Below are positions 3,680-62,255 of a stretch of DNA of 64,000 nucleotides, piece after piece (the stretch's first letter is position 1; every line of letters begins with the position of its first letter). The stretch lies in the NCBI GenBank assembly GCA_032718475.1, contig JAUCBJ010002996.1:1-64000 (forward strand), read 5' to 3'. The notes under the pieces were generated by a model. The model ran no database searches. It was not told the DNA's origin and worked only from the letters and a program-made list of their open reading frames with translations. The position numbers and the translations under genes were made by a program. Source of the stretch: Nemertoderma westbladi. Its lineage: Eukaryota > Animalia > Xenacoelomorpha.

Positions 3680-4250
3680 AATATTACGCTACGCGTACAA
3701 ACTACTCAAACAAAATACAGACCGAACACTGACAGACTACTATCAAGCCTAAACGAACTACGGTATATGCAGACTCCGAAATGATTAGGGAGTATGCGCT
3801 CTAACCCAGTAGTGCGACTTATTCTTTAGTTGGGGGTTTACCTTACAGCGTTCGCTGCCCCTACTGCCTAACCGTACTTAATCGGACAGATGATCTACAC
3901 ACGCGGCAATCCGTTCAGACCTAATAACAGCCAGACAACTATCCAGCCTACAAATTATCTAAATAAAATTATACGCTACCCGTACAGACTTACACAAACA
4001 AAGTACAGACCAAACGATGGCAGACTACTCTCAAGCCTAAATAAACTACAGGACATGCAGACTCCGAAATGATTAGGGAGTATGCGCTCTAACCCAGTAG
4101 TGCGACTTATTCTTTAGTTGGGGGTTTACCTTACAGCGTTCGCTGCCCCTACTTCCTAACCGTACTTAATCGGACAGGTGATCTACACACACTGCAATCC
4201 GTTCAGACTTAACAGCAATCAGACAACAGCTCAGCCTACAAATTGTCTGT
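3680..4250. repeat. ~289-bp tandem duplication in retroelement leader
   Basis: CAGACTCCGAAATGATTAGGGAGTATGCGCTCTAACC at ~3770 and ~4059. Confidence 0.85.
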
Positions 4251-4566
4251 ACAATCTGATCAGGTTTACACGCCTTCTGTTCAATACTGGCCTACAAACA
4301 AATAAAACTGACAGAAATAGGCCTAAGTAAAATCCCAATAAAAACCAGGCGTCCCCGATTAATTATTAAGACCTACTGGTATATAATAATCAAAATCGAA
4401 TAATACTGCTGTACCTGTACTGCTGTAGGTACCGGTCCGGGTGGTTAGGTAGTCAGGCCTACTGGGTACCGGTTCTGGCAGTTGGGCCTACTGACCTACA
4501 GATGTACCGGTTGACCGGTACTTTCAACTTTATTGCTTACTGCAATAAAGAAGCTATATCCGTTAT

Positions 4567-5252
4567 TGTTCGCGCTTTCAGACCTTTGGCAGTTTAACCC
4601 GCCAAATTAGGATGTCTTCTAGATAATAAATCGCTTTTAGCCTCTGACAAGTATTTTATTCACTACACTAGTCGAAACCAATCTGTGCGCGATCATTCAC
4701 CCGCTGGATATACCCGGGAGATTGGGTTCGACGGCTTAATCGTATTGCTATGTAAGCCTACTGTATTATTCGACTGATCGTATTATATAATCTCTGACAA
4801 TATTATTCACCTTCGGGAATATTAACAGTTCCTTTAGGACGTGGCGCTCTATCTATATAAACAGAGTTATGACTTAAACTACTCACAACGATATGGCTTA
4901 GTTATAATTCACATATATGGCGCATTCTTTAGGAAATGCTTCGTTATCAGTCTCACTCATACACAATGCTGCACAATACTACACACTAATCTGCCGATCT
5001 TCACTGATTTTAGTCACATATAAAAGGAACACGGACCGAATCATGTAGGGTCTATCAAATAACATTAGATTCACTTCAAACCACTTTAACATAAGTCACA
5101 ATCGTTATATGTAACCTTTCTCTCTTACCTTCGGTATATCAAGAATATTGGGTTTCGGGGTTATTTATCGTTATTCCAAATATAATAATTCATCAACCAT
5201 ATTATGAAGAACTGACAGTAAATAGCAGTATAACAATATAAAAGTATGCACA
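4567..5252 (-). repeat. Partial or short 5' LTR of copy 1
   Basis: Begins TGTTCGCGCTTTCAG like the other LTRs; similarity stops at AAGTATGCAC (5251). Confidence 0.9.
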
Positions 5253-8914: not shown

Positions 8915-10161
8915 TGTTCGCGCTTTCAGACCTTTGGCAGTTTAACCCGCCAAATTAGGATGTCTTCTAGATAATAAATCGCTTTTAGCCTCTGACAAGT
9001 ATTTGATTCACTACACTAGTCGAAACCAATCTGTGCGCGATCATTCACCCGCTGGATATACCCGGGAGATTGGGTTCGACGGCTTAATCGTATTGCTATG
9101 TAAGCCTACTGTATTATTCGACTGATCGTGTTATATAATCTCTGACAATATTATTCACCTTCGGGGAATATTAGCAGTTCCTTTAGGACGTGGCGCTCTA
9201 TCTATATAAACAGAGTTATGACTTAAACTACTCACAACGATATGGCTTAGTTATAATTCACATATATGGCGCATTCTTTAGGAAATGCTTCGTTATCAGT
9301 CTCACTCATACACAATGCTGCACAATACTGCACACTAATCTGCCGATCTTCACTGATTTTAGTCACATATAAAAGGAACACAGACCGACTCATGTAGGGT
9401 CTATCAAATAACATTAGATTCACTTCAAACCACTTTAACATAAGTCGCAATCGTTATATGTAACCTGTCTCTCTTACCTTCGGTATATCAAGAATATTGG
9501 GGTTTCGGGGTTATTTCTCGTTATTCCAATATAATATTTCATCAACCATATAATGAATAACCTACAGTAAATAGCAGTATAACGTTATAAAAGTATGCAC
9601 GACAAGACCAGCCAAGCATTGAGTAAGTTGTTAACCATTGAGTTACCCAGTTGAGTTAGGTTAGTAGGTAAGTATTGAGTTGCACAGATAACGGATATAT
9701 GTCCTTATAATTAAGCCTACTAGTGTTAGGCTAAAAGCAGAACAGCACAAAATATTCCAAAGCCGTTCTTCCTGGCTCAGGACAGAATGATAACACTGCC
9801 CATAATGCATTGCGTGATTTCTCGGAAATTTCTGTACAAGAGCAGTAAAAACGCTCTGATTGGTTGACTGAACTAAGAGACACCGTAGAACAAAGAAAAT
9901 CGACACGTATGAATATCAGCTGTTAACCGTCGTCATAGTAACTACTGTTCAAGAGTATCTAGCCCCTTTTGCGTCACGGAATTGCCATAGAATCATCAAC
10001 TATGCCTTCCACAGTACACATACGGAAGAAATAGCTCTTAGATCCTCTAAAAACACCGATACAGCAATAATACGGCCTCTTACGCCTATTAAACCAACTA
10101 CAGAGTATTTTACGGGAAAAATAAGGAAAAATAACCGGGCAATTCAGCAAAAGCTTTTACA
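8915..10161 (-). repeat. 3' LTR
   Basis: Direct repeat of 19161-20407 with about three substitutions seen by eye. Confidence 0.96.
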
Positions 10162-10172
10162 CCGCTCCCAGA
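10162..10172 (-). other. Polypurine-tract-like plus-strand primer site
   Basis: Minus strand reads TCTGGGAGCGG immediately before the 3' LTR start TGTAAAAG. Confidence 0.6.
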
Positions 10173-10239
10173 AAATGGGATTTTCAGTCTATAAAATATA
10201 AAAATCACAGTTTCTAAAACATAAAGATACTCTAAACAG

Positions 10240-11540
10240 TTAGTTTTCTTTGCGCGGACGGCGTTTACGCAGTTTCCCGAGGCTAGCCAGAGTCCTTTTC
10301 TCTTTGGGGCGAGCCACTTTACTAGGAAGGCTATAACTCCTGGGTAAAGGGTGCAATACAATTGCATTAGAAGGTTTGGGTTTACGGTCGGTGTCTCGTC
10401 CATTTCGATATGCTTCTCCTCGAGCTGATTTTCCTCCGCTTGTCATGGGATACGTTAGTCCAAAACTCTCGCAGAGAATAGGGTTTTCTAAGCTTGATAT
10501 TTGATTCGAGATTTCCCAATCGAACTGAGATAAGGCCAATTCGTTTATCGATTGGACTTACTGTTATAACTTTCGTTTATCTGAACAAACGCAGGTTTCT
10601 TTTTTGATCTTTATAGAATAGCGTTTAACTCGTTTCGTACAACGCTCTCCTTCACCTTGATGAAGGGTTGTATCGCGTTAAACGGGGACGACCATACGGT
10701 TGGATAGTGATATTAGGTGTCCGCGTCACAATCCGGCTAGGTAAGATGGGCGGCTAGCTAGAAATCACTGTCGGAGTGTTACCGATTAATTGTTAGGGTA
10801 GCACTAGATCTTGGAACAGTGAATACAGTCCGTGAGGATCCGCGATACCATCAGAATCGAAAATCTGAGGTCTAATCAAGAACGAGGTGGTCTGACCGAG
10901 TATTCCGGAACTCCGATCAAAGGTTCACTCAAGGACTGTTTGAGCCGAGTGAGCGTAGGTGATACGTCGAATAAGCTTCGTTCGAAACTCCAGTAAATAT
11001 ACCGAGTACAACTGTGTTTAGCACAACGTTTCCGTGGATGTTTATGTCTTTCCGTTTATTAGTTGGGTCTAGGGCATTTATCGTAATAATATCAAAGACG
11101 CACGTCTGGTAGGGGAAACGCGGATGATATTTATTTGTTGTTACAATGCTTCTATCAAGAATTCCAAATATATGTTGGAGTTACCGCGTTTATTTGTTTC
11201 TTTAATGTCTTTCTTTCGAGTCGATTTCGAATAGGATTTTCGCATTCGAATTTCGGTTTATCGTTTCGACTCCGCTGGGTAGGATATGTTCGACATAGTC
11301 CGTATCGTGTAAATCGATAGAATGGCCAATGGTTAAGAAGTCCATATACATACCATTACGATGCGTGTAGCGAGTGGTGAATTTTCCATAGTCCAATTCA
11401 CGCGTAAGTTGCTTCCAGGAAATCGTCGGTTCGATATAACGACCATCATCCTCCGTAGTAGTTGGACTAGTATCACCGCGTATCAAGCTATCAACAAACG
11501 CTTGAAAGTAGAGTATATAGCTCCCTGATACCAAGACCAT
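10240..11540 (-). pseudogene. Degenerate extra ORF region between pol end and 3' LTR (possible env-position gene)
   Basis: Broken reading-frame pieces (11202-11540, 10240-10539) with coding-like composition and Cys-containing stretches, at the env position; no family recognised. Confidence 0.3.
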
Positions 11541-13283
11541 CTTCTATCAACTCCGTCATATCTGCTATATATGAGTTTATTAATATTATAATGAGTTTAT
11601 ATTTAGGCTAGCGAGCGTCGCTGCCTACCCCAATCAGCCCCCGGACAGTGCGAGATCCTCAGCGCCGATGTGTCGTCACCGCTGTACTTTCGCCAATGAC
11701 GTAGCCGCACAACGACAACGACAACCGGCACAAGTCACTCGACTGTCCGTCCCAAAGGCTTAGATACACCTCAGGTTCTTACTGGAGAGTTAGGGTTACT
11801 TTCACAATTGCGACTCGCTACTGTAAACACACCTTAGTAGTAGCATTCGCCTATAAACTCACAAATACCACACACACAATTTGTCACAAATTACACACAC
11901 TCGGGTCACTTGTCCGTTAGTCAGTGCCTTCCAGAATGTCACGTTATTATCATGTATCCTTGGATACTAGCAGTGCGCTATTTATTTCCTATGCTATTCA
12001 ATGGGACAAGCTGTCTATTGTTCTTTTAACTCAATTCTAATTCTAGCGTGGTTGTTGCTATGGTGACATTATGCAAAGCTAGCGGTAGAATTAGGGTAAT
12101 TCCAATGCATACAGATCTGGGATGTTATTTAATAGTAATTCTTTAATGGTCAATGTCCTGTTTTATGCATGGCTTTATGAATTTTATCGGCTATTGACTA
12201 TGTTTGGGAGACTTTTGCACACTCATACGCATAATAAGATAAATCTCCGCTCCCTTGATCTATTAATTAATGGAATTTTGGGAATGTTATAAATTGCGTA
12301 AAAATGGCAATTTATTAAATTCATTAAAAGACATGAATTTAAATTTATTCCCTGAAATTTTATTATTTGATAATTAAATTGACATATTTTGATTCTAGAA
12401 CATGTCTGGGGACACAAGATCCTTAATTCTATGAAAATTGTCTTTTTAAGAATATCGGTAAATGCTACGATATCTTAATTGACTAGAATTGTTGAAGGAT
12501 CTGAATTTTACAGATTTTGATTTATTAGATTTGCAAATATTAAATAATTAATATTTGAGATGGGCACCGATTTATTCCAGAACTTGTCTGGGGACGTTAA
12601 CCACTGATTCTAGAATTTTGTCTTTCAAGTATATCGGTGGGTGCCGCGATATCTTAATCGACTAGAATTACAAATGGTCAAAAGGTTTAACAGATTTATG
12701 TGCGTTTTACGCTACTGTTAGAGGGACATCACGCTACTATATGTATTATTATATACGGTATGAGAGCAATATCGCACGAAGCAATGTCAGTGTGAAGAGG
12801 CAAGTCGTTTCCAAGGTCTACCCAGAGCTTGGTTTAGCTGAGACACGAGGATCTGAACTTTGCATTCCTAATACTCTGCCTACCAATAATACTTGAATAT
12901 AGTAGTGGCTTTATTGTACTTTAATAAGTACGGACATTTCATCTTACTGTAGTCACGTATTTATAATATGATACGGACAGTAAGGAAAGAGAAAAAGAAT
13001 TATTTCTTGCCGTCGCTCTACATATATTATAAGTAATTACGCACGTAATTAACACTAATATATTGCACTAATCTACTAAATAATCGCTAAATAACATTCT
13101 ACTTAAATAAAAATTAAAGAAAACGATTATAATAAAACTACATAGTAATACATACAGAAATATAAAAATAATAAAATAATATAAAATAATAGAGTCACAC
13201 ACCCACTCCATATGTTGTTACGTTATGAAGTCCCTAGATGTTTGAAGGATTAGGGAGGTGGTCGTGGGAAGAGAATCTTGCCT

Positions 13284-16200
13284 TCAACAGTTTCCGGAGA
13301 GTCCACCATTCCCTTCCGGTAAACACAAACGACCGACTGGGTGATTGAGTCGCTGCATCCCGAATACAATTCCAGGTTTCCTCTTCGTCCTGGAATAGTG
13401 ATGATAGAAACATCGCTCTAAGTACACGACGGCCTTACAAAGCCGATTCCAGGAGCTATAGTGGTCCGTCGCTCCCTGCAGGAGAGGTGAGAGTCCCTGC
13501 GAGACGTCTGATGTTCCAGAGCTCCAATCGCTCTCTCTGATCTTCATGAAGGATCCACTCGCGGTGGGGAGGTCCAGATCCACGGCGTCGTCCCTGGCAA
13601 TATGTAATACCGACAGATCTATCCCGGGTTCAAATAACTCCGATCCACCCGTCCGGGTTTTAGGTTTGACTTTCTCCGCTCCCTTGGCTTGTCTAATCTC
13701 AGCCGGAGTAAGATGGGGAGGCCATTCATCCTCCTTACTCAGGAAGTCGGGTTCACCTAGCCGGTCTGGAGTATCTGTCAGTTCTTGAGGAGTTGCTCCT
13801 CTGGAAGCGATGTCGGCTATATTCATCGTCTTGGGGCAATATCTCCATTGATCTACATTGGAGCTAATATCGTCATTATCTGAGGAGTATGGTGTTCCCT
13901 CAGTTGGGTCGTCTCCCTCACTAGTATCATCTTCCCATTCACTCACCTGACAGACGCGATCTTGAAGCAGTCTTTCTCTGAGCGTTCTTCGGGAAGGTCC
14001 AGTAAGGTACCAACCTACTCTAGTTCTTACCGCATAGGTCTGAAGTGGTTGCGGTTGAGCAGGTCGTTTCTCCAATGTCTCCAGCGCCTCATGCGCGTTT
14101 TGACCGATTAATATTTGTACTCCAGGATAATCGGTGTCGAATCTAGGGATGTTAAGTTGTTGGGCATGATCATCTTCGTCCCAATTATAAGGTTCCACTT
14201 GGGTGGTAGCGAAGTTCTTTATTGCCACCATTTTGACTGACCTTATACTGTGTTCTCCTAGTTTATCCTGTGGAGTGGACAACTCACCTATATAATAGTC
14301 GGCAGCCACAGCAGATTTCCAAACCTGCATGATCCCTGACATGTTTAGCTTGGTTCGGAACTTGGGTTGTCCAGCAAAGATGTCTTCGGCTAGTTCTTTA
14401 TCGATGAATGTTCCTGTGCTGCCGGAGTCCAGGAGGGCGTTCACTATATAGCTCTTCTGAGGTCCGTGGACCCGTAACTGGACTACAGGAAATTCTCGGA
14501 TTCCTATATTGGAAGTTGGCGCTTTCCAAGATGGTTGTTGATCAGAAGTAGTTAAGGTAAGGTCGCTGTCTGTGTCTTTCTCATGCATGAGTGCTCGATA
14601 CACTGCGGTGGTGTTTATTAGGTAACAGGATTCGTTTTGGTCGGAGAATTCGTCCGTATAGAATCCTTCCATCTCAGAACTTTGGTCAGTGTCGTTCACA
14701 TCACTGAATTGGACATGTAGTTCGGACTCACTTACCTGACTCGAGCTGTTTCGTTCGAATTCAGTGTGCAACAAGATATGATGTTTTGCGCCGCACTTAG
14801 CACACCTTGCGTCGGAGTAACAGGTTCGCCGTTGGTGTCCTCGTCTGAGGCAATTATAACACAACCGCTTATCCCACATGACTTCACGTCTATCCTCGAG
14901 TGATTTCCTCAGGAATTCATCACACACATTCAAACGGTGGGGCCCGTCGCACAGCACACATTTCGGCTTGATGTTACTTACTTTAACCTTTGCTATGTGG
15001 TGCACACTTGTTCTTTCCTCGGGCTTTCTCACCTGAATTCTTTTAGGAGACGTAGGAGGGGTTTTTTGTACCGGTTCCCTTCTGTCATTGGGTCGAGACT
15101 TGGATTTACTTACCTGATCTTTAGGCATTTTATTGACATAATAAGATCTGTCAGTGTCTTTCCCGCTGTCCTCTCCTTGAGAAGTTTGGCTTTCACCGTC
15201 GTCGGTATAACATACTGGTGTTACCCTTCTCCTAGAAACGGGTTTCTCACTTACCTTACTTTCCGCTTTCTCTCTGGACTGCTTTATGAGCTGTAATTTC
15301 ACCTCGCTATCCAAGAATGACATGAGATCAGCCATGGTAGGGTCTCGTTGTTGTTGTTCCATCATATATAACACCTTCTTGTCCCAGCGTGTACCTACTC
15401 CACCCTTGGGCAAAGTAGATGCTAAGGCTCCTACAACCATAGAATTCTGGTATTCATGAGACTTACCTAACCAATCTAGTTGTCTACAGATCTCCTGAAT
15501 CTCATCGGAAAACTCTATAATCCCGCTGCTAAGAAACTTTCGGGGCGCCATTAATTTCGCATATAAATACCTAGCTATGTTAGTCCTATTACCATACCTG
15601 ATGTTTAGTGTATCCCAAACTTGTCTTAATCCATCTGGATGTCCAATAAATTTTAACGCCATTGACTTGGGAGGTCCTTCCAAACATTCGATGAGGAATC
15701 TAAGTTTCTCTCCATTAGATAGTACAGAGTTCTGTATGTTATCTTTGTAATATTCATTAAAAGGTAACCATTTCATCTCATCTCCATTGAACTTGACGAT
15801 CTCTCCAACCTTTACCGCTTGTCGGGCTTCGGTTCTAGTCATTTGGCGTGTAAAACTTTCTTGAGCCATCGTATTATTGAATAGAGAATTATCGGTATAT
15901 AAGTTTCTCGGATTATTATCAAGTCTAGATGAGATATCATTATCAACAGGTTTATAATTACCCTTAATAGGGTTTACTATAGGAGTTTCTACTTCGCTAG
16001 CAGTATAGATGCATGTAGGCTCCACACCTTGCGCATGGGATACTTCAGACCTAACGGGTTGACACATTGTTACAGGGGGTGGTGGTATACCCTTTTGTGT
16101 GCTCACTAATTTATCGCGTTCTAACGCGATACTTTGCTGCACCTTTTGCAACTCTAACCTACTTTCCCTTACTGTTCCCTTGAGCTGCTGGACAGTCTCT

Positions 16201-16856
16201 TCCATTTCCCGGACCTGCTGAGAGGAGCACAAACAGTGTTCCCTCAGCTGCTCGAGCAGGAGACCCATCTCCCGTCGTCCCTCAGCTACCCACTCAACCG
16301 CCGAAGCGGGAGTCGCCAACGTTGTAGCGGGCGAGCGAGAGACGACGGGCGATAAATTCTTAATATCTCGCTCGGCGTCCAGGATGGGTTCGGACTCGGG
16401 AACAGTCCTACTGGGCACAGGTAGTTTCGTGCTGTGCAAAGGGAATTTAGAGGTAGGTTCTGGGAGTACAGGTGTCTCTATCACCGCAGGGGTGGCTTTG
16501 AGAACAGGCCTAATTATTTCAGACTCATCTACTATAGTAGGGAGTCTTTCTACTGTAATAATTTGGTCTGTGGGTTCTGTACTACCTAAGTCTGTGCTAG
16601 CTAGTCTCACCGCAGGAGGCAAATTAGGTAACTTCGGACAGTGTGGCATTCTTCTACGCCTGCTTGAAAAAGATTTATTACCTCTACTTTCGGGATCTCT
16701 TATATCACCTTCATCGGAGGAGGCAAATAACTGTCTTCCAATTTGTCTCCTCAAGTCTGCTTCTGCCACTGCCTCTGCCGCTTTTCTTTCCGCTTCTGCC
16801 GCTGCTACTTTTCTTTCTTCTATCCTTTCAAGACACTGTCCAAGTCGAAGACTCAT
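13284..16856 (-). CDS. BEL/Pao Gag-protease polyprotein with RT/RNase H/integrase largely deleted
   Basis: Gag core (KFNGDEMKWLPF...LRFLIECLEGPPK), three BEL-type zinc knuckles (CVLCDGPHRLNVC, CYNCLRRGHQRRTC, CAKCGAKHHILLH), aspartic protease ALLDSGST, Pao RNase H tail QWRYCPKTMNIADIASRG, YSSWNRL motif, terminal PVGRLCLPE. First ATG at 16856 (track start 16871 is TTG). Confidence 0.9.
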   Translation of the reverse strand: MSLRLGQCLERIEERKVAAAEAERKAAEAVAEADLRRQIGRQLFASSDEGDIRDPESRGNKSFSSRRRRMPHCPKLPNLPPAVRLASTDLGSTEPTDQIITVERLPTIVDESEIIRPVLKATPAVIETPVLPEPTSKFPLHSTKLPVPSRTVPESEPILDAERDIKNLSPVVSRSPATTLATPASAVEWVAEGRREMGLLLEQLREHCLCSSQQVREMEETVQQLKGTVRESRLELQKVQQSIALERDKLVSTQKGIPPPPVTMCQPVRSEVSHAQGVEPTCIYTASEVETPIVNPIKGNYKPVDNDISSRLDNNPRNLYTDNSLFNNTMAQESFTRQMTRTEARQAVKVGEIVKFNGDEMKWLPFNEYYKDNIQNSVLSNGEKLRFLIECLEGPPKSMALKFIGHPDGLRQVWDTLNIRYGNRTNIARYLYAKLMAPRKFLSSGIIEFSDEIQEICRQLDWLGKSHEYQNSMVVGALASTLPKGGVGTRWDKKVLYMMEQQQRDPTMADLMSFLDSEVKLQLIKQSREKAESKVSEKPVSRRRVTPVCYTDDGESQTSQGEDSGKDTDRSYYVNKMPKDQVSKSKSRPNDRREPVQKTPPTSPKRIQVRKPEERTSVHHIAKVKVSNIKPKCVLCDGPHRLNVCDEFLRKSLEDRREVMWDKRLCYNCLRRGHQRRTCYSDARCAKCGAKHHILLHTEFERNSSSQVSESELHVQFSDVNDTDQSSEMEGFYTDEFSDQNESCYLINTTAVYRALMHEKDTDSDLTLTTSDQQPSWKAPTSNIGIREFPVVQLRVHGPQKSYIVNALLDSGSTGTFIDKELAEDIFAGQPKFRTKLNMSGIMQVWKSAVAADYYIGELSTPQDKLGEHSIRSVKMVAIKNFATTQVEPYNWDEDDHAQQLNIPRFDTDYPGVQILIGQNAHEALETLEKRPAQPQPLQTYAVRTRVGWYLTGPSRRTLRERLLQDRVCQVSEWEDDTSEGDDPTEGTPYSSDNDDISSNVDQWRYCPKTMNIADIASRGATPQELTDTPDRLGEPDFLSKEDEWPPHLTPAEIRQAKGAEKVKPKTRTGGSELFEPGIDLSVLHIARDDAVDLDLPTASGSFMKIRESDWSSGTSDVSQGLSPLLQGATDHYSSWNRLCKAVVYLERCFYHHYSRTKRKPGIVFGMQRLNHPVGRLCLPEGNGGLSGNC

Positions 16857-18239
16857 TCTAACACTTTTCAAAAAACTATCTGACAGTGCCCGTTTTGTGT
16901 CAGGTATGTTTGATTGTACAGTTGAATGCCTACTGCTATATTACAGTTAAAGCAAGTCTAGTAATTCAGTATCACTGTTAGCCTAGTAATTAATTACCGA
17001 TACTGCTACTCAGTGTAGCGTGATATATATATAATATATTAGAATACCGGTATGCTTATAGTATATATATAAGTATTATTACAGACTAGGTTTATCACAG
17101 AATATCGGTATATAATTTTAGCATAAATATATAAATATATAATAGGCCTATCGTGAATACCGGTATACAGCTTACAGTTTATAGTATATATAAGTATAAT
17201 TCTGGACTAGAATTAATTACAAAGTACCGGTATAATTTCAGCCTAAATTTATAGAAATAAAGATAATAGGCTTATCGTAAATACCGGTATATCAATTATT
17301 TTAAATAATTGAATTTCTGAATTTTAGGGTTACTTGGTTACTTTACTTACTTTATTACCGTTATTTGAGCAGTAGTCCAACTGATATTGAAACCTAATGG
17401 TTGTATGACAGGCCTACTATCTATAAATCGTTAGAGTTGATTTATAATATATATATACCCGTTTAATGGGTTTTGTCAGTATTTGAAATAAATGTTATTA
17501 TTTCTGGGAAGGAGTCACTACACAGAAGCTGTGCGCTCTCAGTGAAGTGCTACTTGTTAGACACTAAAACAAATAATTCTAATTTACCTAAGTTACTTAA
17601 TACTACAAATTACGTACAATTCGGGTGAGATTTCAATCTCTAAATAAACACAAAAATTTACAAAAAACACAAATACGAATTTTTAGGGTAATTTTACAAG
17701 AAGTCTACAAACCAGCCTAACAAAGGGTTAGAAATCTGGTTATTACAACGGACAGGGTACTACGGTATTTGAAAATAATAAGTAGTAGTGAATATATTAC
17801 GCTGTCCAGATAGGAAAATACCACCGTCTGACGACCTATAGCCGTATCGCTATAGGTACTACGTTATGTATCACGGAGTGTCCCTACCTAGAAGTTAATT
17901 ACCGCGGTCTACCAGAACCAACGTGCCTATTAACCACTTTACAACACAATACACTGCCTACACACTAATTACTTTCGGAAAGCACTGTACACTAAACCCT
18001 AAATTAGGTACGAGTACTTGTACAACAGATAATCAGTAGTTAAAAATACTTGAACAGCTAAAAGAACCACGGCATCTGCTGGAGTGACCGGTGCACAAAA
18101 TCACCAGTCTTTACCTACGCCAAGCAGCCCGTGTAGTACCGGGGTTAATTTAACTATAGCGGTATATATAACAAGCACAATTACTGTAGGAATAAACTTG
18201 GGGAATGAATGTTGCGAATAATAGCATAAACTCTGAATA

Positions 18240-18810
18240 ATAAATATTACGCTACGCGTACAAACTACTCAAACAAAATGCAGACCAAACACTGACAGAC
18301 TACTATCAAGCCTAAACAAACTACGGTATGTGCAGACTCCGAAACGGTTAGTTAGTATGCGCGCTAACCGAGTAGTACGCCTTATTCTTTAAGAGGGGGT
18401 TTACCTCACAGCACTGGAAGCCCCTACTTACTAACTGGCACTTTATCGGACATGCACTCTACACACAACGCAATCCCTCAGACCTAATAACAGCTAGGCA
18501 ACAATTCAGCCTACAGATTATCAAAATAAGAATATTACGCTACCCGTACAGACTACACAAACAAAGTACAGACCAAACGCTGTCAGCCTACTATCAAGCC
18601 TAAATAAACCACAGTACATGCAGACTCCAAAATGGTTAGTTAGTATGCGCGCTAACCGAGTAGTACGACTTATTCTTTAAGAGGGGGTTTACCTCACAGC
18701 ACTGGAAGCCCCTACTTACTAACTGGCACTTTATTGGACATACACTCTACACACACTACAGTCCTTCAGACTTAACAACAGTCAGACAACAGCTCAGCCT
18801 ACAAATTCTC
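18240..18810. repeat. ~288-bp tandem duplication in retroelement leader
   Basis: GGTTAGTTAGTATGCGCGCTAACCGAGTAGTACG at ~18346 and ~18633. Confidence 0.85.
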
Positions 18811-19149
18811 TATACAATCTGAACAGGCTTACACGCCTTCTGCTCAATATTGGCCTACAAACAAATAAAACTGACAGAAATAAGTAAACCATACAAAGGA
18901 ATAAGGGGTGATCAATCCCTAATCCCTTAGCAGCCTACAATATACAATATATCACAATCGAAATAATACTGCTGTACCTGTACTGCAGTAAGTACCGGTA
19001 CGGGTGATCAGGCAGTCAGGCCTACTGGTTAACGGTCGACCGGTACTTTAGCTTTATTGCCTACCGCAATACAGAAGCAATATCTGCTATTGTTCTTTAC
19101 CAGAACAATATTAAACTGCATTTAGTGCCTACACTGCAATACAGACTAA

Positions 19150-19160
19150 ATATCCGTTAT
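19150..19160 (-). other. PBS position: ATAACGGATAT, complementary to LTR sequence at 19934-19944
   Basis: No TGG-initiated tRNA PBS after the 5' LTR; perfect 11-nt complement inside the LTR. Confidence 0.5.
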
Positions 19161-20407
19161 TGTTCGCGCTTTCAGACCTTTGGCAGTTTAACCCGCCAAA
19201 TTAGGATGTCTTCTAGATAATAAATCGCTTTTAGCCTCTGACAAGTATTTGATTCACTACACTAGTCGAAACCAATCTGTGCGCGATCATTCACCCGCTG
19301 GATATACCCGGGAGATTGGGTTCGACGGCTTAATCGTATTGCTATGTAAGCCTACTGTATTATTCGACTGATCGTGTTATATAATCTCTGACAATATTAT
19401 TCACCTTCGGGGAATATTAGCAGTTCCTTTAGGACGTGGCGCTCTATCTATATAAACAGAGTTATGACTTAAACTACTCACAACGATATGGCTTAGTTAT
19501 AATTCACATATATGGCGCATTCTTTAGGAAATGCTTCGTTATCAGTCTCACTCATACACAATGCTGCACAATACTGCACACTAATCTGCCGATCTTCACT
19601 GATTTTAGTCACATATAAAAGGAACACAGACCGACTCATGTAGGGTCTATCAAATAACATTAGATTCACTTCAAACAACTTTAACATAAGTCGCAATCGT
19701 TATATGTAACCTGTCTCTCTTACCTTCGGTATATCAAGAATATTGGGGTTTCGGGGTTATTTCTCGTTATTCCAATATAATATTTCATCAACCATATAAT
19801 GAATAACCGACAGTAAATAGCAGTATAACGTTATAAAAGTATGCACGACAAGACCAGCCAAGCATTGAGTAAGTTGTTAACCATTGAGTTACCCAGTTGA
19901 GTTAGGTTAGTAGGTAAGTATTGAGTTGCACAGATAACGGATATATGTCCTTATAATTAAGCCTACTAGTGTTAGGCTAAAAGCAGAACAGCACAAAATA
20001 TTCCAAAGCCGTTCTTCCTGGCTCAGGACAGAATGATAACACTGCCCATAATGCATTGCGTGATTTCTCGGAAATTTCTGTACAAGAGCAGTAAAAACGC
20101 TCTGATTGGTTGACTGAACTAAGAGACACCGTAGAACAAAGAAAATCGACACGTATGAATATCAGCTGTTAACCGTCGTCATAGTAACTACTGTTCAAGA
20201 GTATCTAGCCCCTTTTGCGTCACGGAATTGCCATAGAATCATGAACTATGCCTTCCACAGTACACATACGGAAGAAATAGCTCTTAGATCCTCTAAAAAC
20301 ACCGATACAGCAATAATACGGCCTCTTACGCCTATTAAACCAACTACAGAGTATTTTACGGGAAAAATAAGGAAAAATAACCGGGCAATTCAGCAAAAGC
20401 TTTTACA
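19161..20407 (-). repeat. 5' LTR
   Basis: Direct repeat of 8915-10161; followed by TSD CTATT. Confidence 0.96.
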
Positions 20408-20741
20408 CTATTAAAGAGGTGACAAGCCAAAGGATGTGTGGACGCGCTTTAGGCTGTCATCTACTAGCCAGCCGGTTGAGAAAGGTCGGTCGTGTCGCTC
20501 GGCTTATAGCGATCGGACTTGCCTAGGTCGGGAGCCGCAAGACGAATAGCATATAGTCGTGGAATCGTGCCCCAAGTTATTCCTAATTCGCCAGCAATTT
20601 CCTGGAATTTCAGCCTCGGTGACTTAACTGACACTACCGACACCGAGGCTATAAGTTTTATTTCAGAGTTCAATTAATAACCTCGATTAGAATTAATGTG
20701 GTGGCGGAAATTATTAGGTGTTTATATTTTCAAGTATAAAT

Positions 20742-22815
20742 ACATACTTAAATCTATCGTAAATATTTTAATATTTACCTTACTTCATTGTCTCGTACTT
20801 AAATTTACCGTAAATATTTACCTTACTTCATACTTAAATCTCCTCTAATATTTACCTTACTTCATACTTAAATCTACCGTAAATATTTTAATATTTACCT
20901 TACTTCATTGTCTCGTACTTAAATTTACCGTAAATATTTACCTTACTTCATACTTAAATCTACCGTAAATATTTTAATATTTACCTTACTTCATTGTCTC
21001 GTACTTAAATCTACCGTAAATATTTACCTTACTTCATACTTAAATCTACCGTAAATATTTACCTTACTTCATACTTAAATCTACCGTAAATATTTTAATA
21101 TTTACCTTACTTCATTGTCTCGTACTTAAATTTACCGTAAATATTTACCTTACTTCATACTTAAATCTACCGTAAATATTTTAATATTTACCTTACTTCA
21201 TTGTCTCGTACTTAAATTTACCGTAAATATTTACCTTACTTCATACTTAAATCTACCGTAAATATTTTAATATTTACCTTACTTCATTGTCTCGTACTTA
21301 AATTTACCGTAAATATTTACCTTACTTCATACTTAAATCTACCGTAAATATTTTAATATTTGCCTTACTTCATTGTCTCGTACTTAAATCTACCGTAAAT
21401 ATTTACCTTACTTCATACTTAAATCTACCGTAAATATTTACCTTACTTCATACTTAAATCTACCGTAAATATTTACCTTACTTCATACTTAAATCTACCG
21501 TAAATATTTACCTTACTTCATACTTAAATCTACCGTAAATATTTACCTTACTTCATACTTAAATCTACCGTAAATATTTACCTTACTTCATACTTAAATT
21601 TACCGTAAATATTTACCTTACTTCATACTTAAATCTACCGTAAATATTCACATTACTTCATACTTAAATCTACCGTAAATATTTACCTTACTTCATACTT
21701 AAATCTACCGTAAATATTTTAATATTTACCTTACTTCATTGTCTCGTACTTAAATCTACCGCAAATATTTACCTTACTTCATACTTAAATCTACCGTAAA
21801 TATTTACCTTACTTCATACTTAAATTTACCGTAAATATTTACCTTACTTCATACTTAAATCTACCGTAAATATTCACATTACTTCATACTTAAATTTACC
21901 GTAAATATTTACCTTACTTCATACTTAAATCTACCGTAAATATTTTAATATTTACCTTACTTCATTGTCTCGTACTTAAATCTACCGTAAATATTTACCT
22001 TACTTCATACTTAAATCTACCGTAAATATTTACCTTACTTCATACTTAAATTTACCGTAAATATTTACCTTACTTCATACTTAAATTTACCGTAAATATT
22101 TACCTTACTTCATACTTAAATCTACCGTAAATATTTACCTTACTTCATACTTAAATCTACTGTAAATATTTACCTTACTTCATACTTAAATTTACTGTAA
22201 ATATTTACCTTACTTCATACTTAAATCTACCGTAAATATTCACATTACTTCATACTTAAATCTACCGTAAATATTTACCTTACTTCATACTTAAATTTAC
22301 CGTAAATATTTACCTTACTTCATACTTAAATTTACCGTAAATACTGTATTTACCTTACTTCATACTTAAATCTACTGTAAATATTTACCTTACTTCATAC
22401 TTAAATCTACCGTAAATATTCACATTACTTCATACTTAAATCTACCGTAAATATTTACCTTACTTCATACTTAAATCTACCGTAAATATTAACCTTACTT
22501 CATACTTAAATCTACCGTAAATATTTACCTTACTTCATACTTAAATCTACCGTAAATATTAACCTTACTTCATACTTAAATCTACCGTAAATATTTACCT
22601 TACTTCATACTTAAATCTACCGTAAATATTTACCTTACTTCATACTTAAATCTACTGTAAATATTTACCTTACTTCATACTTAAATTTACTGTAAATATT
22701 TACCTTACTTCATACTTAAATCTACCGTAAATATTTACCTTACTTCATACTTAAATCTACCGTAAATATTTACCTTACTTCATACTTAAATCTACCGTAA
22801 ATATTTACCTTACTT
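20742..22815. repeat. 35-bp minisatellite with 51-bp variant units
   Basis: Unit AAATCTACCGTAAATATTTACCTTACTTCATACTT, more than 50 units; the long variant adds two 8-bp segments. Confidence 0.97.
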
Positions 22816-25517: not shown

Positions 25518-25695
25518 AGCAGCTTGATCTAGTGGTTACATTCCTGGGCTTCAATTCAGGAAGCCCTTGTTCGATCCCTAGATGGGGGCTGCACTATTTG
25601 GGCACTCTGCTTTAAATGCTGCATGCAGCGTAGCCCAACCCGAGCTTTCATCCTTGGATGGTCGGTAAATGGGAACCAAGGCAACTTGGGAAATA
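25518..25695 (+). mobile_element. tRNA-derived SINE (head plus conserved central domain)
   Basis: A-box-like TCTAGTGGTTA, B-box GTTCGATCCC, then CCAACCCGAGCTTTCATCCTTGGATGGTCGGTAAATGGGAACCA, resembling the CAGCCTTCCATCC...GGTCGGTAAATGAGTACC domain of widespread animal SINEs. Confidence 0.65.
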
Positions 25696-25696
25696 T

Positions 25697-26857
25697 AGTG
25701 GAAGGGTTTACTGTGAAAGATCACACATGGTGGTGAACAGGCATTCCTGTAGGAACCAGAGTGGAAGGGTTTACTGTGGGAGATCACCCGTAGTGGTGAA
25801 CAGACATTCCTTTAAGTAACAGAGAGGAAGGGTTTACTGTGGAAGATCACTCATGGTGGTGAACAGGCATTTCTTTAGGAAACAGAGTGGAATGGTTTAC
25901 TGTGGAAGATCACCCATGGTGGTGAACAGGCATTCCTTTAGGAAACAGAGTGGAAGGGTTTACTGTGGAAGATCACCCATGGTGGTGAACAGGTATTCCT
26001 TTAGAAAACAGAGTGGAATGGTTTAATGTGGAAGATCACCCATGGTGGTGAACAGGCATTCCTTTATGAAACAGAGTGGAAGGGTTTACTGTGGAAGATC
26101 ACCCATGGTGGTGAACAGGTATTCCTTTAGAAAACAGAGTGGAATGGTTTAATGTGGAAGATCACCCATGGTGGTGAACAGGTATTCCTTTAGAAAACAG
26201 AGTGGAATGGTTTAATGTGGAAGATCACCCATGGCGGTGAACAGGCATTCCTTTATGAAACAGAGTGGGAGGGTTTACTGTGGAAGATCACCCATGGTGA
26301 TGAACAGGCATTCATTTAGGAAACAGAGTGGAAGGGTTTACTGTGGAAGATCACCCATGGTGGTGAACAGGTATTCCTTTAGAAAACAGAGTGGAATGGT
26401 TTAATGTGGAAGATCACCCATGGTGGTGAACAGGCATTTCTTTAGGAAACAGAGTGGAATGGTTTACTGTGGAAGATCACCCATGGTGGTGAACAGGCAT
26501 TCCTTTAGGAAACAGAGTGGAAGGGTTTACTGTGGAAGATCACCCATGGTGGTGAACAGGTATTCCTTTAGAAAACAGAGTGGAATGGTTTAATGTGGAA
26601 GATCACCCATGGTGGTGAACAGGCATTCCTTTATGAAACAGAGTGGAAGGGTTTACTGTGGAAGATCACCCATGGTGGTGAACAGGCATTCCTGTAGGAA
26701 CCAGAGTGGAAGGGTTTAATGTGGAAGATCACCCATGGTGGTGAACAGGCATCCTTTAGGAAACCGAGTCGAAGGGTTTAATGTGGAAGATCGCCCATGG
26801 TGTTGAACGGGCATTCCTTTAGAAACGGAGTGGAAGGGTTTACTGCGGAAGATCACA
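25697..26857. repeat. 63-bp minisatellite (~18 copies)
   Basis: Unit AGAGTGGAAGGGTTTACTGTGGAAGATCACCCATGGTGGTGAACAGGCATTCCTTTAGGAAAC; a single dispersed monomer at ~31170-31222. Confidence 0.97.
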
Positions 26858-33813: not shown

Positions 33814-35730
33814 ATGAATTCCTCGTCTAGCCCACCCACAACTCTGCCCCGATTGGCTAAGTCCAGCAGGAGGGCGAGTTCACTAAAGTATAATACAGCC
33901 CAGAGAGTGACGACGGGTCCAAATCTGCGTAAATTATTAGCTGGTCGCAGATATTCCCAGAGTCTAACTATTCCGGTAGTTATATCCAAATCAGAAAGCG
34001 ATTTACGGAATACATCGAACAGTTCTTCATCAACCACGATCGCCGTACCTGATGATTCGGAATCTCTCGATGGGATCAACAGTCAGCCCCTCCCGCTCAA
34101 CCAGGACTTCAGACACAGACGAGGAAACTCTGTAAGCAATCCGCTACGCAGTGCCCGAGCAGACCTCGTTAGAGGCAGCACAGAGTTTTTCCAAGTCCGC
34201 ACAGAACTTCAGTCATCGAGTTTACAACTGCCGAATCCAGCGAGACAAACGAAGCCACGCAACATATCTCCAGAACAGAAAGAAAAACCTGTCGAAACAA
34301 CTGCAGAAGTGGTACAGGATAATTCGGTTCAACTGCCGATAGAAAGGCAAGGAATATACAAAGATAAATACGTCGAAGAACAAATAGAATTGTTGAGACG
34401 GAAATATTCTCACACTAGTGGTCCCAGGTTGTTCCAGGAAAGGACAATAATTGGATGTGTGTCTAATGAACCATATTCAACTCGGGGTTTTATTAATCAA
34501 GAAGAGTTACAAACACCGAAACCAAAAGTGGAACACCGTAAAGTAAAACCTACCAAGGAAAATATTCACAAGGTTAAAAGATCGCCGTCTAATCCCGAGC
34601 ATATTACTAATCCGTCTAAAGTTTTCTTACCTCACAGACTCGCAAATGACACTAAACCCGTACAATCAAAATTAAAAGACTCAGAGGTTCAACCAGAAGT
34701 TATTATTACCTTGGTGGACTCCTCAAATTGTGACGGAAAAATGAGAAAAGGTTCTGCCATAGAAGATTCTAATTTAAATATTCCGAGGTACAAACCCACT
34801 GAATCCACGGGTGCTACATCAAGCACGACAGACACATTGTCGCCGAATAGTCAAAGGAAGATCGTGCGATTCGATGTAGAGCCGAGAAAATCACAACCGC
34901 CAGGTGGTAAAGGTACGAGTCTACCTCCTTTACGGTTGGGGGGAGAACGACCGGCTAGCGACAACGATGTCCCTCTAGATATCTCAGCGAATTTGCGATT
35001 AGAAGGAATAAAAGAGCTTCAGCAGTTACTAAACGAAGCAAAGGATTTGGCGAGAGACACAGAAAGTGATCTGCGTGAGTTTCGCAGTAAAAAGACATCA
35101 AAACAAGTTGAGAAACGCAATTATTCGAAGATTAATAGAGGAAAGACTGTAAATATAACTTTAAATAAAAATATAAAACATAATGTAACTGAGAGCAAGT
35201 CTACAAAATATTATCCCGAACTAAATCATACCGTGGGCAATAGTGAAGGACGCGAATGCAATACTGAGTTGCGCGAAAACAATCCAAAACTAAGCGAATC
35301 TACTGGGAATAAAGTCATAGAAAACACCAAAGGAATGGCAGACGACGCAGAACACAAAATCCTTGACGTGGCTGAGTCGCCCAGCAGTCCAATAAACGAT
35401 CAACTCGAAACTTCAACGATTTCATTGAAAAATGATATTAATCCTCCAATAATCGCAAATCACATAAAGCAAATATCAGTGCGGGAAAAAGTCTACCACT
35501 TTAGGCGCGATAGTGGTGAAGGGTATAGCGCGATGCCGCCCTCGGATGGCACAGCTGTGCCGGATATGGGCCACCACCATATCGCATTATTGGCAAATTT
35601 TAACTTACAACCAGATGTGGATGAGGACAACTGCCTCACTGATGTGCAAATGGAACGAATTACTGAGTGGCTAGCTGGCGTAGATAAAGCTGAAGACGGG
35701 ATACCCGCATGTGTCGTAGAACCAAAGTAA
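33814..35730 (+). CDS. Uncharacterised 638-aa, largely low-complexity/disordered protein
   Basis: Long ATG-initiated ORF in AT-rich DNA with higher GC; S/P/K/N-rich; short coiled coil (LEGIKELQQLLNEAKDLARDTE) and C-terminal MERITEWLAGV motif. Confidence 0.75.
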   Translation: MNSSSSPPTTLPRLAKSSRRASSLKYNTAQRVTTGPNLRKLLAGRRYSQSLTIPVVISKSESDLRNTSNSSSSTTIAVPDDSESLDGINSQPLPLNQDFRHRRGNSVSNPLRSARADLVRGSTEFFQVRTELQSSSLQLPNPARQTKPRNISPEQKEKPVETTAEVVQDNSVQLPIERQGIYKDKYVEEQIELLRRKYSHTSGPRLFQERTIIGCVSNEPYSTRGFINQEELQTPKPKVEHRKVKPTKENIHKVKRSPSNPEHITNPSKVFLPHRLANDTKPVQSKLKDSEVQPEVIITLVDSSNCDGKMRKGSAIEDSNLNIPRYKPTESTGATSSTTDTLSPNSQRKIVRFDVEPRKSQPPGGKGTSLPPLRLGGERPASDNDVPLDISANLRLEGIKELQQLLNEAKDLARDTESDLREFRSKKTSKQVEKRNYSKINRGKTVNITLNKNIKHNVTESKSTKYYPELNHTVGNSEGRECNTELRENNPKLSESTGNKVIENTKGMADDAEHKILDVAESPSSPINDQLETSTISLKNDINPPIIANHIKQISVREKVYHFRRDSGEGYSAMPPSDGTAVPDMGHHHIALLANFNLQPDVDEDNCLTDVQMERITEWLAGVDKAEDGIPACVVEPK

Positions 35731-47328: not shown

Positions 47329-48630
47329 TCAACAGCGGGTCTCGTACAAACCCGACTTACCGATGTATCGAACCCATTTGATGACGTCGTGATCGGAATA
47401 ATTGAGTTTCGATTCGAACACCTTGAGGTAGCGAACCTTGAGCCCACTGGGGGCGAACGGCACCTCGAAACTCATCGATATCGGTGGCCGCGCCCACTTC
47501 TTCTTATCCGCGGACGCGAGCAACTCGATCTCCGCCGATATCTGGCTCTCCTTCATCCCGCCCATCCGCTTTATCTTCCAGAGAATCGCGTTCTCCGACG
47601 CTTTGTACTTGGCTTTCCCTTTCATACAGATGACCTGAACGCCGCTGGTGTTTAACGGCGTCGGGATTCGAACCTCGATCTTCTGGGCCAACAACGACGG
47701 TTTGAAGTTGCTCTTGAGCACGACTTTAACCTCCATCTTCGATCGTCCGACCTCCCGGACTAACGGAATGACCCGGAATGGTAGACTGATATCCTTGGTG
47801 GTTCGGTACCGCATTAACTCGTACTCCCCATCCGGCGGAATGAAACTAATAGATCGCTCTGTCTCGAACTTAGATAACTTCACGCACTGATGGAAAGTGC
47901 AATCGTCTATGGCGATGGACGTTTTATTCTGTCGGAAGGCGTCATCGGATGACGATTTCCCCTGTTTATCCAACGTTATCTTGTCGTTCAAACCGAATTT
48001 ACATTCCGGCATTCCAGACAGATACGACTTCATCATGACCTTACCGGAGACGTGAGCGCTAAGCACCTGACCCTGCGGCGACATGAGCAGATTAACCGAT
48101 TCTAGGACGTCGAGGAACAACTCATTCCGTCGGTATTTGATTCCATCTCGTCTCCAACCGATCTGCCCGGTAACTTGCTTCGTTATCTCAGCGTGCTCCT
48201 CTTTAGTGACTGATTTAATCCCTTGTTGCGTTATGTAGGTTTTTAACGTGCCGGTATCTGTATGCTGAGGGTAGCCGTAGTCGAGAATCTCGTCTAAAAG
48301 TTCGTAAATTAAAACGAAATTATTTTTTACATTGTCCTCGTTAATTTTACCGAAATACGAGGACATTACCGAGCAAACCTTAAGGATAAACTCGAACACG
48401 AGGGTAGAGTTGACGTTCTGTTTGGTAACGGCGGCGAGCCAGATGTTCCCGCGACGGATGTGGAAGAAGGAGGTTCTCGCGATGTTGGTTACCGGACTGC
48501 GAACCTGCTGACGGGCATGGATGACGTTGACCCGGAACGCGTCCACTGCGTTGCGACCGATGTCATCCCGATAAATACGGGAGATCAGAACCTCACCTTT
48601 GTGGTTGTATATAAACAGTCCGCCTATCAT
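47329..48630 (-). CDS. AP2M1: AP-2 complex subunit mu (clathrin adaptor mu2)
   Basis: [47 protein letters not shown]..., [24 protein letters not shown], ends [17 protein letters not shown]; full-length 433 aa in one exon. Confidence 0.98.
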
Positions 48631-48646
48631 TCTGTTATTCTGTGTC

Positions 48647-49221
48647 CTATATCAGTAAAGTATATCTTTACCTATATGACAGTGTGCAGCAGTATGATCC
48701 TGATATCAGGATATAGCTGTATATAGGCCTACTGCTGTACTGGCTGACTGGTATTGTCAGATTGTGTTGTGATATTGCAGTATTGATATATTGAAATAGA
48801 AAAAACCAATGATTAACGAAACGACAAACTGACAAATTCTTCCGGCTGTACGTTCCGGGAATGATAGTAAATGTTGAAATGGTAATAACTGTAGATCTGT
48901 TCCCGTCAGCCCGTTGGCAGTTGGTTGCCAGGTTGCGTTTAGGCGTTGGTCCCTGTTCAGTAGTGTAGTAGCAGTAAGTAGCCTTTTACACTCAACAGTC
49001 AGACAGTTGTAGCTATGGTACCGGTACCCACTAACAGCTGAACAGTACAGCAGTACTGCACTATGCCTGTATGCGATGCGTGCTTGTGCTAGCAGGCTAG
49101 ACCTATGCCAGTATGCCTGTACAGCTGTATGACAGTACATGCAGTTATGATGTTGGGTAGTCCTATGCAGCTATGCCAGTATGCTCCTGTCCTGTAATCC
49201 TTGGATGTAGGTAACACTTAC
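48647..49221 (-). other. Possible 5' UTR intron of AP2M1
   Basis: Minus-strand GTAAGT at 49221 downstream of a GC-richer segment; TACTGATATAG acceptor 16 nt before the ATG. Confidence 0.3.
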
Positions 49222-50933: not shown

Positions 50934-51674
50934 GAACGGCATGGTAAGACGTGATTTAAAAGATTTAAATATTGAAGAATATTGGTGTACCGCAAATTAT
51001 AATAGCTTATTAAAGGAATGTTTATAAAAGTAATATATTAATTGTTACGTTATATTATAAAACTGGTTTATTATATTTATCATCTTGTAAAGATAGTAAA
51101 TTACATATAAGCATAAGTATTCTATTATAAAATATTATAATTGTGTTGGTGAAGTTTAGGCCAACATTCTTGAGGCCCCATAATTTTTCGGTTGAAATAT
51201 CGTATACGTTTAGAACAGCATAGGTAGCCAAGGTGATCTCGAATGAAGCGATATTTAAAACACCACTCTCATGATAGCTTTTTGACATAGTTAATCTATA
51301 ATACCACATCATTCATTATCCATGCGACAAACGTTATCTTTGAAGCGCTGTCACCACATTTTCACAACAGCGCTTTAACCTAAAACCAAAATACTCTGAT
51401 TGAACAGCATCGCGCTCTCACAGCGCTATCACTCCGAAGTGTGTATCGTTGCGTGGCAATAAAAAGGCGCTAAGTCGAGCTTTTGAAAAAATGAGTTATT
51501 TATACCACCAGATAGCTGATGAAATTTGTCATCGATGGGTACTATTTGTTATTGTGATTTGTAGGCCTATATCCTTTTCAATATTCATAGCCTGTATAAT
51601 AAATTTAATTTGATTACATTTTATCATTTTGAATAGGAATTCCAATAACTGAGTTAGATCCTTTTAAACAGAAC

Positions 51675-59156: not shown

Positions 59157-59495
59157 TGTATGATTGTAGTCCAGTAGTCTGGCCTGGCTGTTTCTGTGTT
59201 TGGTACCAGTAGTTATGTAGTAAGTTGTGGTTTAGTTCAGTACTCAGGTAGGCTACTGCAGTACTGCAGTAGCCTACTCTAATACTGTAATATGCTAATG
59301 CAGTAATCCTCTAGTCCTGTGCGTTCAGCTGTAGTCATTCATAAGCTTAAAAAAACGCAATAATTTTTATTGTCCGTTTAAATCCTTTTTTTGTCTTTTA
59401 TTTTTTATTTTTTATGTCCTCCAAAAATCTAATGTTAGGTTCCATGCTACCGGTTTCTCTACTGCTGTTCTCTCAGGCTATCAGTACCGGTATTA

Positions 59496-61487: not shown

Positions 61488-62255
61488 GTTGTTTTGGTTA
61501 GAAAATCCCGCCTCTGTAACCTGCTCCTTTCCCCCGCCTCTGTAACCTGCCCCTTTCCCTCAATTAGTTAAATGATCGTTTATTGTTTTGGTTAGAAAAT
61601 ACCGCCTCTGTAACCTGCTCCTTTCCCTCAATTAGTTAAGTGATCGTTTATTGTTTTGGTTAGGGAATCCCGCCTCTGTAACCTGCTCCTTTCTCTCAAT
61701 TGTTAATGTTATCATTTATTGTTTTGGTTAGAAAATCCCGTCTCTGTAACCTGCTCCTTTCCCTGATTTGGTAAAGTGACTGTTTATTGTTTTGGTTAGA
61801 AAATCCCGCCTCTGTAACCTGCTCCTTTCCCTCAATTAGTTAAGTGATCGTTTATTGTTTTGGTTAGGAAATCCCGCCTCTGTAACCTGCTCCTTTCTCT
61901 CAATTGGTAATGTTATCGTTTATTGTTTTGGTTAGAAAATCCCGTCTCTGTAACCTGCTCCTTTCCCTGATTTGGTAAAGTCACTGTTTATTGTTTTGGT
62001 TAGAAAATCCCGCCTCTGTAACCTGCTCCTTTCTCTCAATTGGTAATGTTATCGTTTATTGTTTTGGTTAGAAAATCGCGTCTCTGTAACCTTCTCCTTT
62101 CCCTCAATTAGTTAAATGATCGTTTATTGTTTTGGTTAGAAAGTCCCGCCTCTGTAACCTGCTCCTTTCCCCGATTTGGTAAAGTGACTGTTTATTGTTT
62201 TGGTTAGAAAATCCGGCCTTAACCTGCTCCTTTCCATCAATTGGTAATTGTTTTT
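61488..62255. repeat. 67/68-bp minisatellite with three recurring unit variants
   Basis: TGTTTTGGTTAGAAAATCCCGCCTCTGTAACCTGCTCCTTTC core, about 11 units. Confidence 0.95.

Follow-up and report, generated by a model that had tools for sequence, protein, structure and literature searches.

One of two related elements on the minus strand of the 64-kb window (the whole stretch of DNA analysed here), copy 2, belongs to a BEL/Pao retrotransposon family that probably primes minus-strand DNA synthesis with RNA from nucleotides 464–474 of its own LTR, and not with a tRNA. That the family self-primes in some form we regard as quite likely. The first-pass annotation had proposed Tf1-style self-priming; self-complementary, tRNA-independent priming is supported by a control with 12 distantly related loci, whereas the strict form, in which the first 11 nt of the mRNA are the primer, is unsupported. 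The features discussed below are collected in Table 1.

The LTR limits of copy 2 were set by self-comparison of the sequence, and since the LTR end is fixed by direct repeats together with the target site duplication (TSD), the boundary is independent of the PBS match. Copy 2 is a young, non-autonomous, RT-less BEL/Pao retrotransposon copy, with the BEL/Pao traits of a DUF1759 gag, three knuckles, a protease, TG..CA LTRs, a TSD and a polypurine tract (PPT). Its ORF matches Pfam PF03564 (DUF1759, E=2e-13), which is also present in the best protein hits, and alignment with relatives reveals three Cys/His knuckles and the protease motif LLDSG. The reading frame then runs straight from the protease into the C-terminal end of RNase H, with RT absent; of the pol order RT-RNase H-integrase only this RNase H C-terminal motif remains, and the BEL/Pao assignment rests on gag-protease. 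No integrase remains were detected in the element by tblastn with 51 relatives, and there is no close protein relative among the best 150 of 11974 hits, where identities are 24–38%. We note that about 3 kb at the place expected for the integrase (10162–13284) lack detectable pol similarity, despite the near-identical LTRs and the intact TSD, and that the 2.2-kb leader of both copies contains a 288-bp tandem duplication (18243–18817 and 3680–4254).

The window also contains a single-ORF eukaryotic adaptor-complex mu subunit gene (47329–48651, minus strand) and a 706-aa RING-finger ORF (57111–59231, minus strand), both with no apparent introns, a 621-aa RVT_1 ORF (51658–53523, plus strand) and a 638-aa ORF without Pfam match (33814–35730, plus strand). 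Minisatellite arrays lie at 20743–22815 (35/86 bp), 25689–26856 (63 bp) and 61533–62247 (68 bp), the first beginning approximately 330 bp from the 5′ end of the element.

Table 1. Positions of element features in the window.
Feature	Positions	Strand	Remarks
Copy-2 5′ LTR, TGT...ACA	19161..20407	-	1247 bp; 99.76% identical to 3′ LTR
Copy-2 3′ LTR	8915..10161	-	1247 bp; 3 differences from 5′ LTR
Target site duplication AATAG	upstream 20408..20412, downstream 8914-8910	-	
Short polypurine tract (PPT) GGGAGCGG	10162..10169	-	adjoins 3′ LTR
1218-aa ORF	13284..16940	-	DUF1759 gag, three Zn knuckles, aspartic protease, then RNase H C-terminal end
PBS ATAACGGATAT	19150..19160	-	directly after LTR end ...GCGAACA at 19161; without spacer to LTR, without TGG
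Candidate self-primer ATATCCGTTAT (the 11-mer), LTR nt 464-474	19934..19944; second copy 9688-9698	-	duplex with PBS -12.0 kcal/mol
Family-conserved 50-nt island	19933..19982	-	AGCCTA-N7-TAGGCT inverted repeat, TATAAG, 11-mer
TATA-like TATAAG, LTR nt 453	19950..19955	-	first T 11 nt upstream of 11-mer
Initiator-like TCATTC, LTR nt 372-377	20031..20036	-	candidate upstream start site; sequence motif
CCAAT box, LTR nt 299-303	20105..20109	-	hint of promoter upstream of 11-mer
Inner arm, LTR segment	19271..19289	-	predicted to pair with U5 end just 5′ of PBS
Outer pretzel-like arm, LTR segment	19330..19354	-	predicted to pair with leader just 3′ of PBS (19149-19125)
Degenerate second copy of LTR end and PBS	19080..19095	-	about 65 nt into copy-2 leader; read from sequence
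Copy-1 LTR, 5′-truncated	4567..5251	-	97% identical to copy-2 LTR; without 11-mer
Copy-1 PBS	4555..4566	-	12-nt complement of copy-2 LTR

The absence of a TGG tRNA-type PBS after the 5′ LTR, noted in the first-pass annotation, is borne out, the first TGG being at leader nt 59. Full-length tRNAs end in CCA, and with no TGG before that position a full-length tRNA cannot be the primer. The 18-nt PBS for a tRNA 3′ end that ICTV gives as a BEL/Pao trait is absent from copy 2, with no TGG within 58 nt. ARAGORN found no tRNA genes in the 64-kb window, and there were no Rfam matches at E up to 1 over 16900–20500. The PBS has its exact complement inside the LTR, as the annotation had stated, at LTR nt 464–474 of both LTR copies, and the 3′ end of this 11-mer faces the LTR terminus with the polarity right for priming. 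Anchored matches of at least 11 nt to the copy-2 LTR occur at 59 of 27114 background positions (0.2%) and at none of 2171 leader positions, and one of 200 shuffled PBSs matches the LTR as well, so that the chance of such a match between the PBS and its own LTR is about 0.2–0.5%. The margin is smaller when judged by duplex energy with G-U pairs allowed, 9 of 300 shuffles equalling the 11-mer match.

A comparative control comes from distant BEL/Pao relatives. A profile from 26 relatives gave 95 loci, the best 79 of 569 metagenome loci and 16 from a genome collection, and the control count was made on the 12 whose LTR 3′ end is fixed by a direct repeat, the other 83 being left out; in L047 the LTR end was placed at the ACA 7 nt inside the repeat, and the LTRs of L032 are only 74% alike. 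In all nine loci with a non-TGG PBS, which are marine elements (L009, L012, L016, L021, L031, L032, L047, L077 and L080), the PBS matches the element's own LTR over 10–15 nt (0–1 of 200 shuffles each), whereas the three TGG PBSs match theirs over 4–6 nt and none is a self-match. Only 6 of 156 cross comparisons reach 10 nt, all among the sister families L016, L021 and L031, so the nine loci amount to about seven independent letter sets; the PBS of copy 2 has a score of 11 with its own LTR and of no more than 7 with any of the 12 others. Within this set primer and PBS change together across distant families, the PBS letters differing freely among the nine and each following its own LTR. We consider that self-matches in nine of nine non-TGG loci and in none of three TGG loci, with few cross-matches, make self-priming likely.

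In five of the nine loci (L009, L016, L021, L031 and L077) a GT-AG intron within the LTR has to be spliced out for the match to form at all or to reach its best form, which argues that the pairing takes place at the RNA level. Intron-spanning PBS complements were also found in L008, L013, L014, L030, L036, L042 and L082 (11–15 nt overall), so that many marine BEL/Pao elements would obtain their primer by splicing. For copy 2 itself a splice-made primer was rejected (7 nt at best with a loose filter, none with a strict one), as was a bulged junction at the donor at LTR nt 927 (−5.5 versus −12.5 kcal/mol). The primer lies upstream of an AATAAA-type poly(A) signal in all seven loci having one, and 64 nt (L047) or about 133 nt (L021) after a TATA box; being between TATA box and poly(A) signal, it is inside the transcript in these relatives and not at its 5′ end.

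A further tier comprised 13 loci for which the LTR end was chosen by scanning, among them L047, already counted above. Six more of these have an own-LTR match of 11–15 nt (L008, L013, L014, L030, L042 and L071), those of L036 and L037 fit by eye, and L007, L017 and L055 have none. The repeat of L085 was not used, since it belongs to a different element in opposite orientation. In L082 a first 12-nt match beside the TATA box proved to be a decoy, and a better LTR end gives an 11-nt spliced match; an LTR-internal match of 12–13 nt beside a TATA box can thus be a decoy, which counts against our reading of copy 2. This 12–13 nt complement of L082 joins TATA-overlapping sequence with exon 1 in a 1.6-kb LTR (L082:1861-1872 and 2045-2056), is not a PBS, and is a possible regulatory pairing. 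We also observed a BEL/Pao element with an ATCAG TSD, 95% identical LTRs and a TGG-type PBS (L091:9080-15059) inside a 1.44-Mb record titled Wolbachia chromosome; host DNA may have entered the assembly, the host genome may harbour a Wolbachia copy, or the insertion may be real. Fifteen bacterial MAG contigs (L080-L090 and L092-L095) carry animal-type BEL/Pao elements, most simply explained as host contamination of the bins.

The family is very abundant in contigs of public runs, with 11879 contigs aligned from one run. The 50-nt island that contains the 11-mer is common to many contigs and its conservation stops within approximately 3 nt of the 11-mer 3′ end, where several contig joints or loose ends also fall (19931–19935) and the next 35–120 nt are replaced; we have counted this pattern in favour of self-priming. 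An exact 23-nt pattern from the island has no hits in metagenome contigs, and no relatives of the element were found in viral contigs. A second exact 11-nt complement joins the upstream part of the island (19974–19984) with U5 (19227–19237), and the island shares a 10-nt direct repeat with the outer arm (19347–19356).

Three contigs (two in X3 and one in X6) carry PBS variants that keep the first five letters and differ at positions 6 and 8, one of them also differing further on. All three would mispair with the copy-2 11-mer, and they stand against the self-priming model until matched by LTR changes. All keep ATAAC, the complement of which presumably resembles a GTT anticodon loop, as would suit a host RNA (a tRNA half or other small RNA) acting as primer, with the LTR match a coincidence or a decoy. 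Half-tRNA priming does exist in Ty1/copia lineages (PMC6317226). Against such a primer are the lack of TGG within 58 nt of leader, the low chance of the self-match, and the PBS letters of the nine relatives, which vary freely and each track their own LTR; we therefore hold it to be very improbable.

Where transcription starts bears on how a self-primer could be delivered. The TATA-like box that the annotation had placed close upstream of the 11-mer is indeed there as TATAAG; single-base indels occur at this site in other family copies, some of which have an extra base giving TATAAA. TATAAG can act as a working TATA box, and a TATA box lies about 30 nt before the start, so that TATAAG at LTR nt 453 would predict a start at about nt 481–483, some 7–9 nt after the 11-mer. 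The CCAAT box and the initiator-like TCATTC would instead fit transcription beginning some 90 nt before the primer; among the variants listed (40 of 203 rows, two runs), those near CCAAT are at 20104 and 20110, on either side of the box. Promoter motifs thus point either upstream of the 11-mer or just after it, and none places the start at 19944. With the relatives carrying the primer inside the transcript and TATAAG predicting a later start, a primer formed by the 5′-terminal 11 nt of the mRNA is not supported. From the motifs at LTR nt 299 and 372 we infer a genomic RNA that would begin before the 11-mer, the primer then being internal to the 5′ R region. Both start sites, upstream and downstream of the primer, may be used; for Tf2, one priming-competent and one priming-incompetent start site are described (PMC5341516).

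Were TATAAG the real promoter, with a start at about nt 481–483, the 11-mer would be in U3 and present only near the 3′ end of the RNA, from where it would pair with the PBS of the same or a co-packaged RNA and be cut to prime. The spacing of TATAAG, its position inside the conserved island and its TATAAA form in some copies fit this arrangement, as do copy 1, whose start seems to lie about 3 nt beyond the 11-mer, and a good candidate donor, AAG|GTAAGA, roughly 200 nt further downstream, like exon 1 of L082. However, the cut would remove the 3′ R needed for strand transfer, and in relatives the primer follows a TATA box (L021, L047) and precedes the poly(A) signal. We know of no precedent for priming delivered from a 3′ U3, and we judge it unlikely here; if true, it would be a topology not described for any LTR element, in a BEL/Pao branch without tRNA priming and with a primer that is often splice-built.

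Predicted RNA structure gives a mixed picture. The outer arm of copy 2 has an energy of −24.7 kcal/mol, reached by none of 173 and none of 200 nulls; the inner arm (−20.0 kcal/mol) is not significant alone, 24 of 200 shuffles reaching it. Opening the PBS is predicted to cost 3.6 (copy 2) or 1.6 (copy 1) kcal/mol, versus −12 to −13 kcal/mol gained by the primer duplex. Tf1 forms a pretzel with duplexes flanking its PBS (10.1101/2022.12.06.519325), and the copy-2 arms in this geometry, together with the cheap opening of the PBS, were counted for self-priming. The leader arm of copy 1 is not significant (27/200) and a significant leader arm is present in none of 14 relatives, so the pretzel is not general. 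In nested folding the helix between 11-mer and PBS has a probability of 0–0.39, and of 0 in all five folds that include 100 nt of leader; this helix would be a pseudoknot, which the folding program cannot form. The low helix probability, the absence of a spacer after the LTR, unlike in the nine relatives, and the lack of a general pretzel were counted against self-priming.

The low helix probability also speaks for a pairing that has another job, such as an RNA switch for packaging, dimerisation or PBS masking, or that is due to chance, with priming by another route. Equally stable G-U-containing partners exist elsewhere in the element (−12.6 kcal/mol at 12942), further 10–11 nt complements and repeats exist within the LTR, and the L082 decoy points the same way. 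Yet the match sits, with the right polarity, exactly where minus-strand priming must start, and among the control loci self-matches occur only where a tRNA-type PBS is missing (nine of nine versus none of three); we consider another role for the pairing, or chance, unlikely.

The LTR of copy 1 stops before the 11-mer, as had been noted; a 10-nt match extends the likely LTR homology to about 5282, approximately 3 nt past the would-be 11-mer end (59/5000 shuffles), and a search for a hidden 5′ part of this LTR found none. The annotation had also pointed out that copy 1 keeps the PBS although the adjacent leader has diverged. The PBS is retained at the same site with its 12-nt match; as an argument for self-priming this is weak, because the PBS adjoins an LTR 97% identical between the copies and because a duplication in the copy-2 leader accounts for most of the divergence that follows it.

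A mechanism consistent with priming from an internal LTR segment can be proposed. Duplexes on both sides would hold the PBS open and the internal 11-mer would pair with it; a cut after LTR nt 474, made by RNase H by analogy with Tf1, would then free a 3′-OH, with the enzyme supplied in trans by an intact family member. RT would copy U5 and R back to the cut and then jump to the 3′ LTR copy. The Tf1 self-priming mechanism, with its cut by RNase H, is described in PMC7175516.

To our knowledge BEL/Pao is the least studied of the LTR superfamilies. The annotation had regarded self-priming as known in Ty3/gypsy and not in BEL/Pao. In PMC6317226 and PMC4600332 the Tf1/sushi elements are described as self-priming, and the same is predicted of Tcn1 and the copia element TAR; the TAR and Houba predictions mean that self-priming is not confined to Ty3/gypsy, so this half of the statement is too narrow. 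For BEL/Pao the statement stands in that no report was found in titles and abstract openings, although subscription papers, Repbase Reports or supplements may hold such a remark. A term look-up in the open portions of PMC3118150, PMC554778 and PMC6238403 gave no mention of a PBS, and the corresponding portions of PMC3601003, PMC8220671 and PMC6934838 do not report BEL/Pao self-priming. The feature itself is real, and it would represent a variation on a known mechanism in a superfamily for which self-priming seems not to have been described.

The reference description of BEL/Pao assumes priming by tRNA-Arg or tRNA-Gly (PMC8742986). If a broad BEL/Pao branch self-primes, each of the three LTR-retrotransposon superfamilies has either evolved or retained self-priming, a point relevant to whether tRNA priming is the ancestral state. 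With an internal primer, splice-made in relatives, replication would depend on which start site is used and on splicing, and tRNA fragments could not control it; annotation that depends on a PBS misses self-priming elements.

Among known systems, the window element is like Tf1 and Tf2 of Schizosaccharomyces pombe, Tj1, Tosmo and the Tf1/sushi group of Ty3/gypsy chromoviruses in lacking a tRNA PBS and in the 11-nt complement within its own LTR; duplexes flanking the PBS are predicted here too, of which the leader arm of copy 2 reaches significance. In Tf1, however, the primer is mRNA nt 1–11, whereas the primer of copy 2 probably lies inside the transcript and may even belong to U3; the Tf1/sushi elements belong to another superfamily, and the window element has no visible chromodomain integrase, a BEL/Pao-type protein, and a primer-to-PBS distance of 773 nt. 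With TAR, Houba and Osr-1 (plant Ty1/copia) and with Tcn1 it shares a self-priming prediction made from sequence alone, TAR being outside the Tf1 lineage (PMC6317226), but those are plant copia or gypsy elements and this is an animal BEL/Pao element. It resembles the Belpaoviridae (genus Semotivirus, ICTV) in its DUF1759 gag, triple Zn knuckle, protease, TG..CA LTRs, 5-bp TSD and PPT, and differs in having no 18-nt PBS for tRNA-Arg or tRNA-Gly, which ICTV describes for that family (PMC8742986). The marine BEL/Pao loci (L009 and others) share with it a non-TGG, own-LTR PBS, a G-rich PPT ending near GCGG/GCCGG and, in most rows shown, QWR at the RNase H end, although this PPT and QWR resemblance is only a hint; they differ in the 2–4 nt spacer after the LTR present in all nine self-matching loci, in their shorter LTRs, in a primer that is often splice-made, and in proteins at most 25% identical to that of the window element over aligned columns. 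In a gag-protease tree, which joins it firmly to neither, the window element forms a long branch lying between the self-matching loci and the elements with a TGG PBS. Copy 2 stands for an additional, very divergent lineage with an unusually short distance between promoter and primer.
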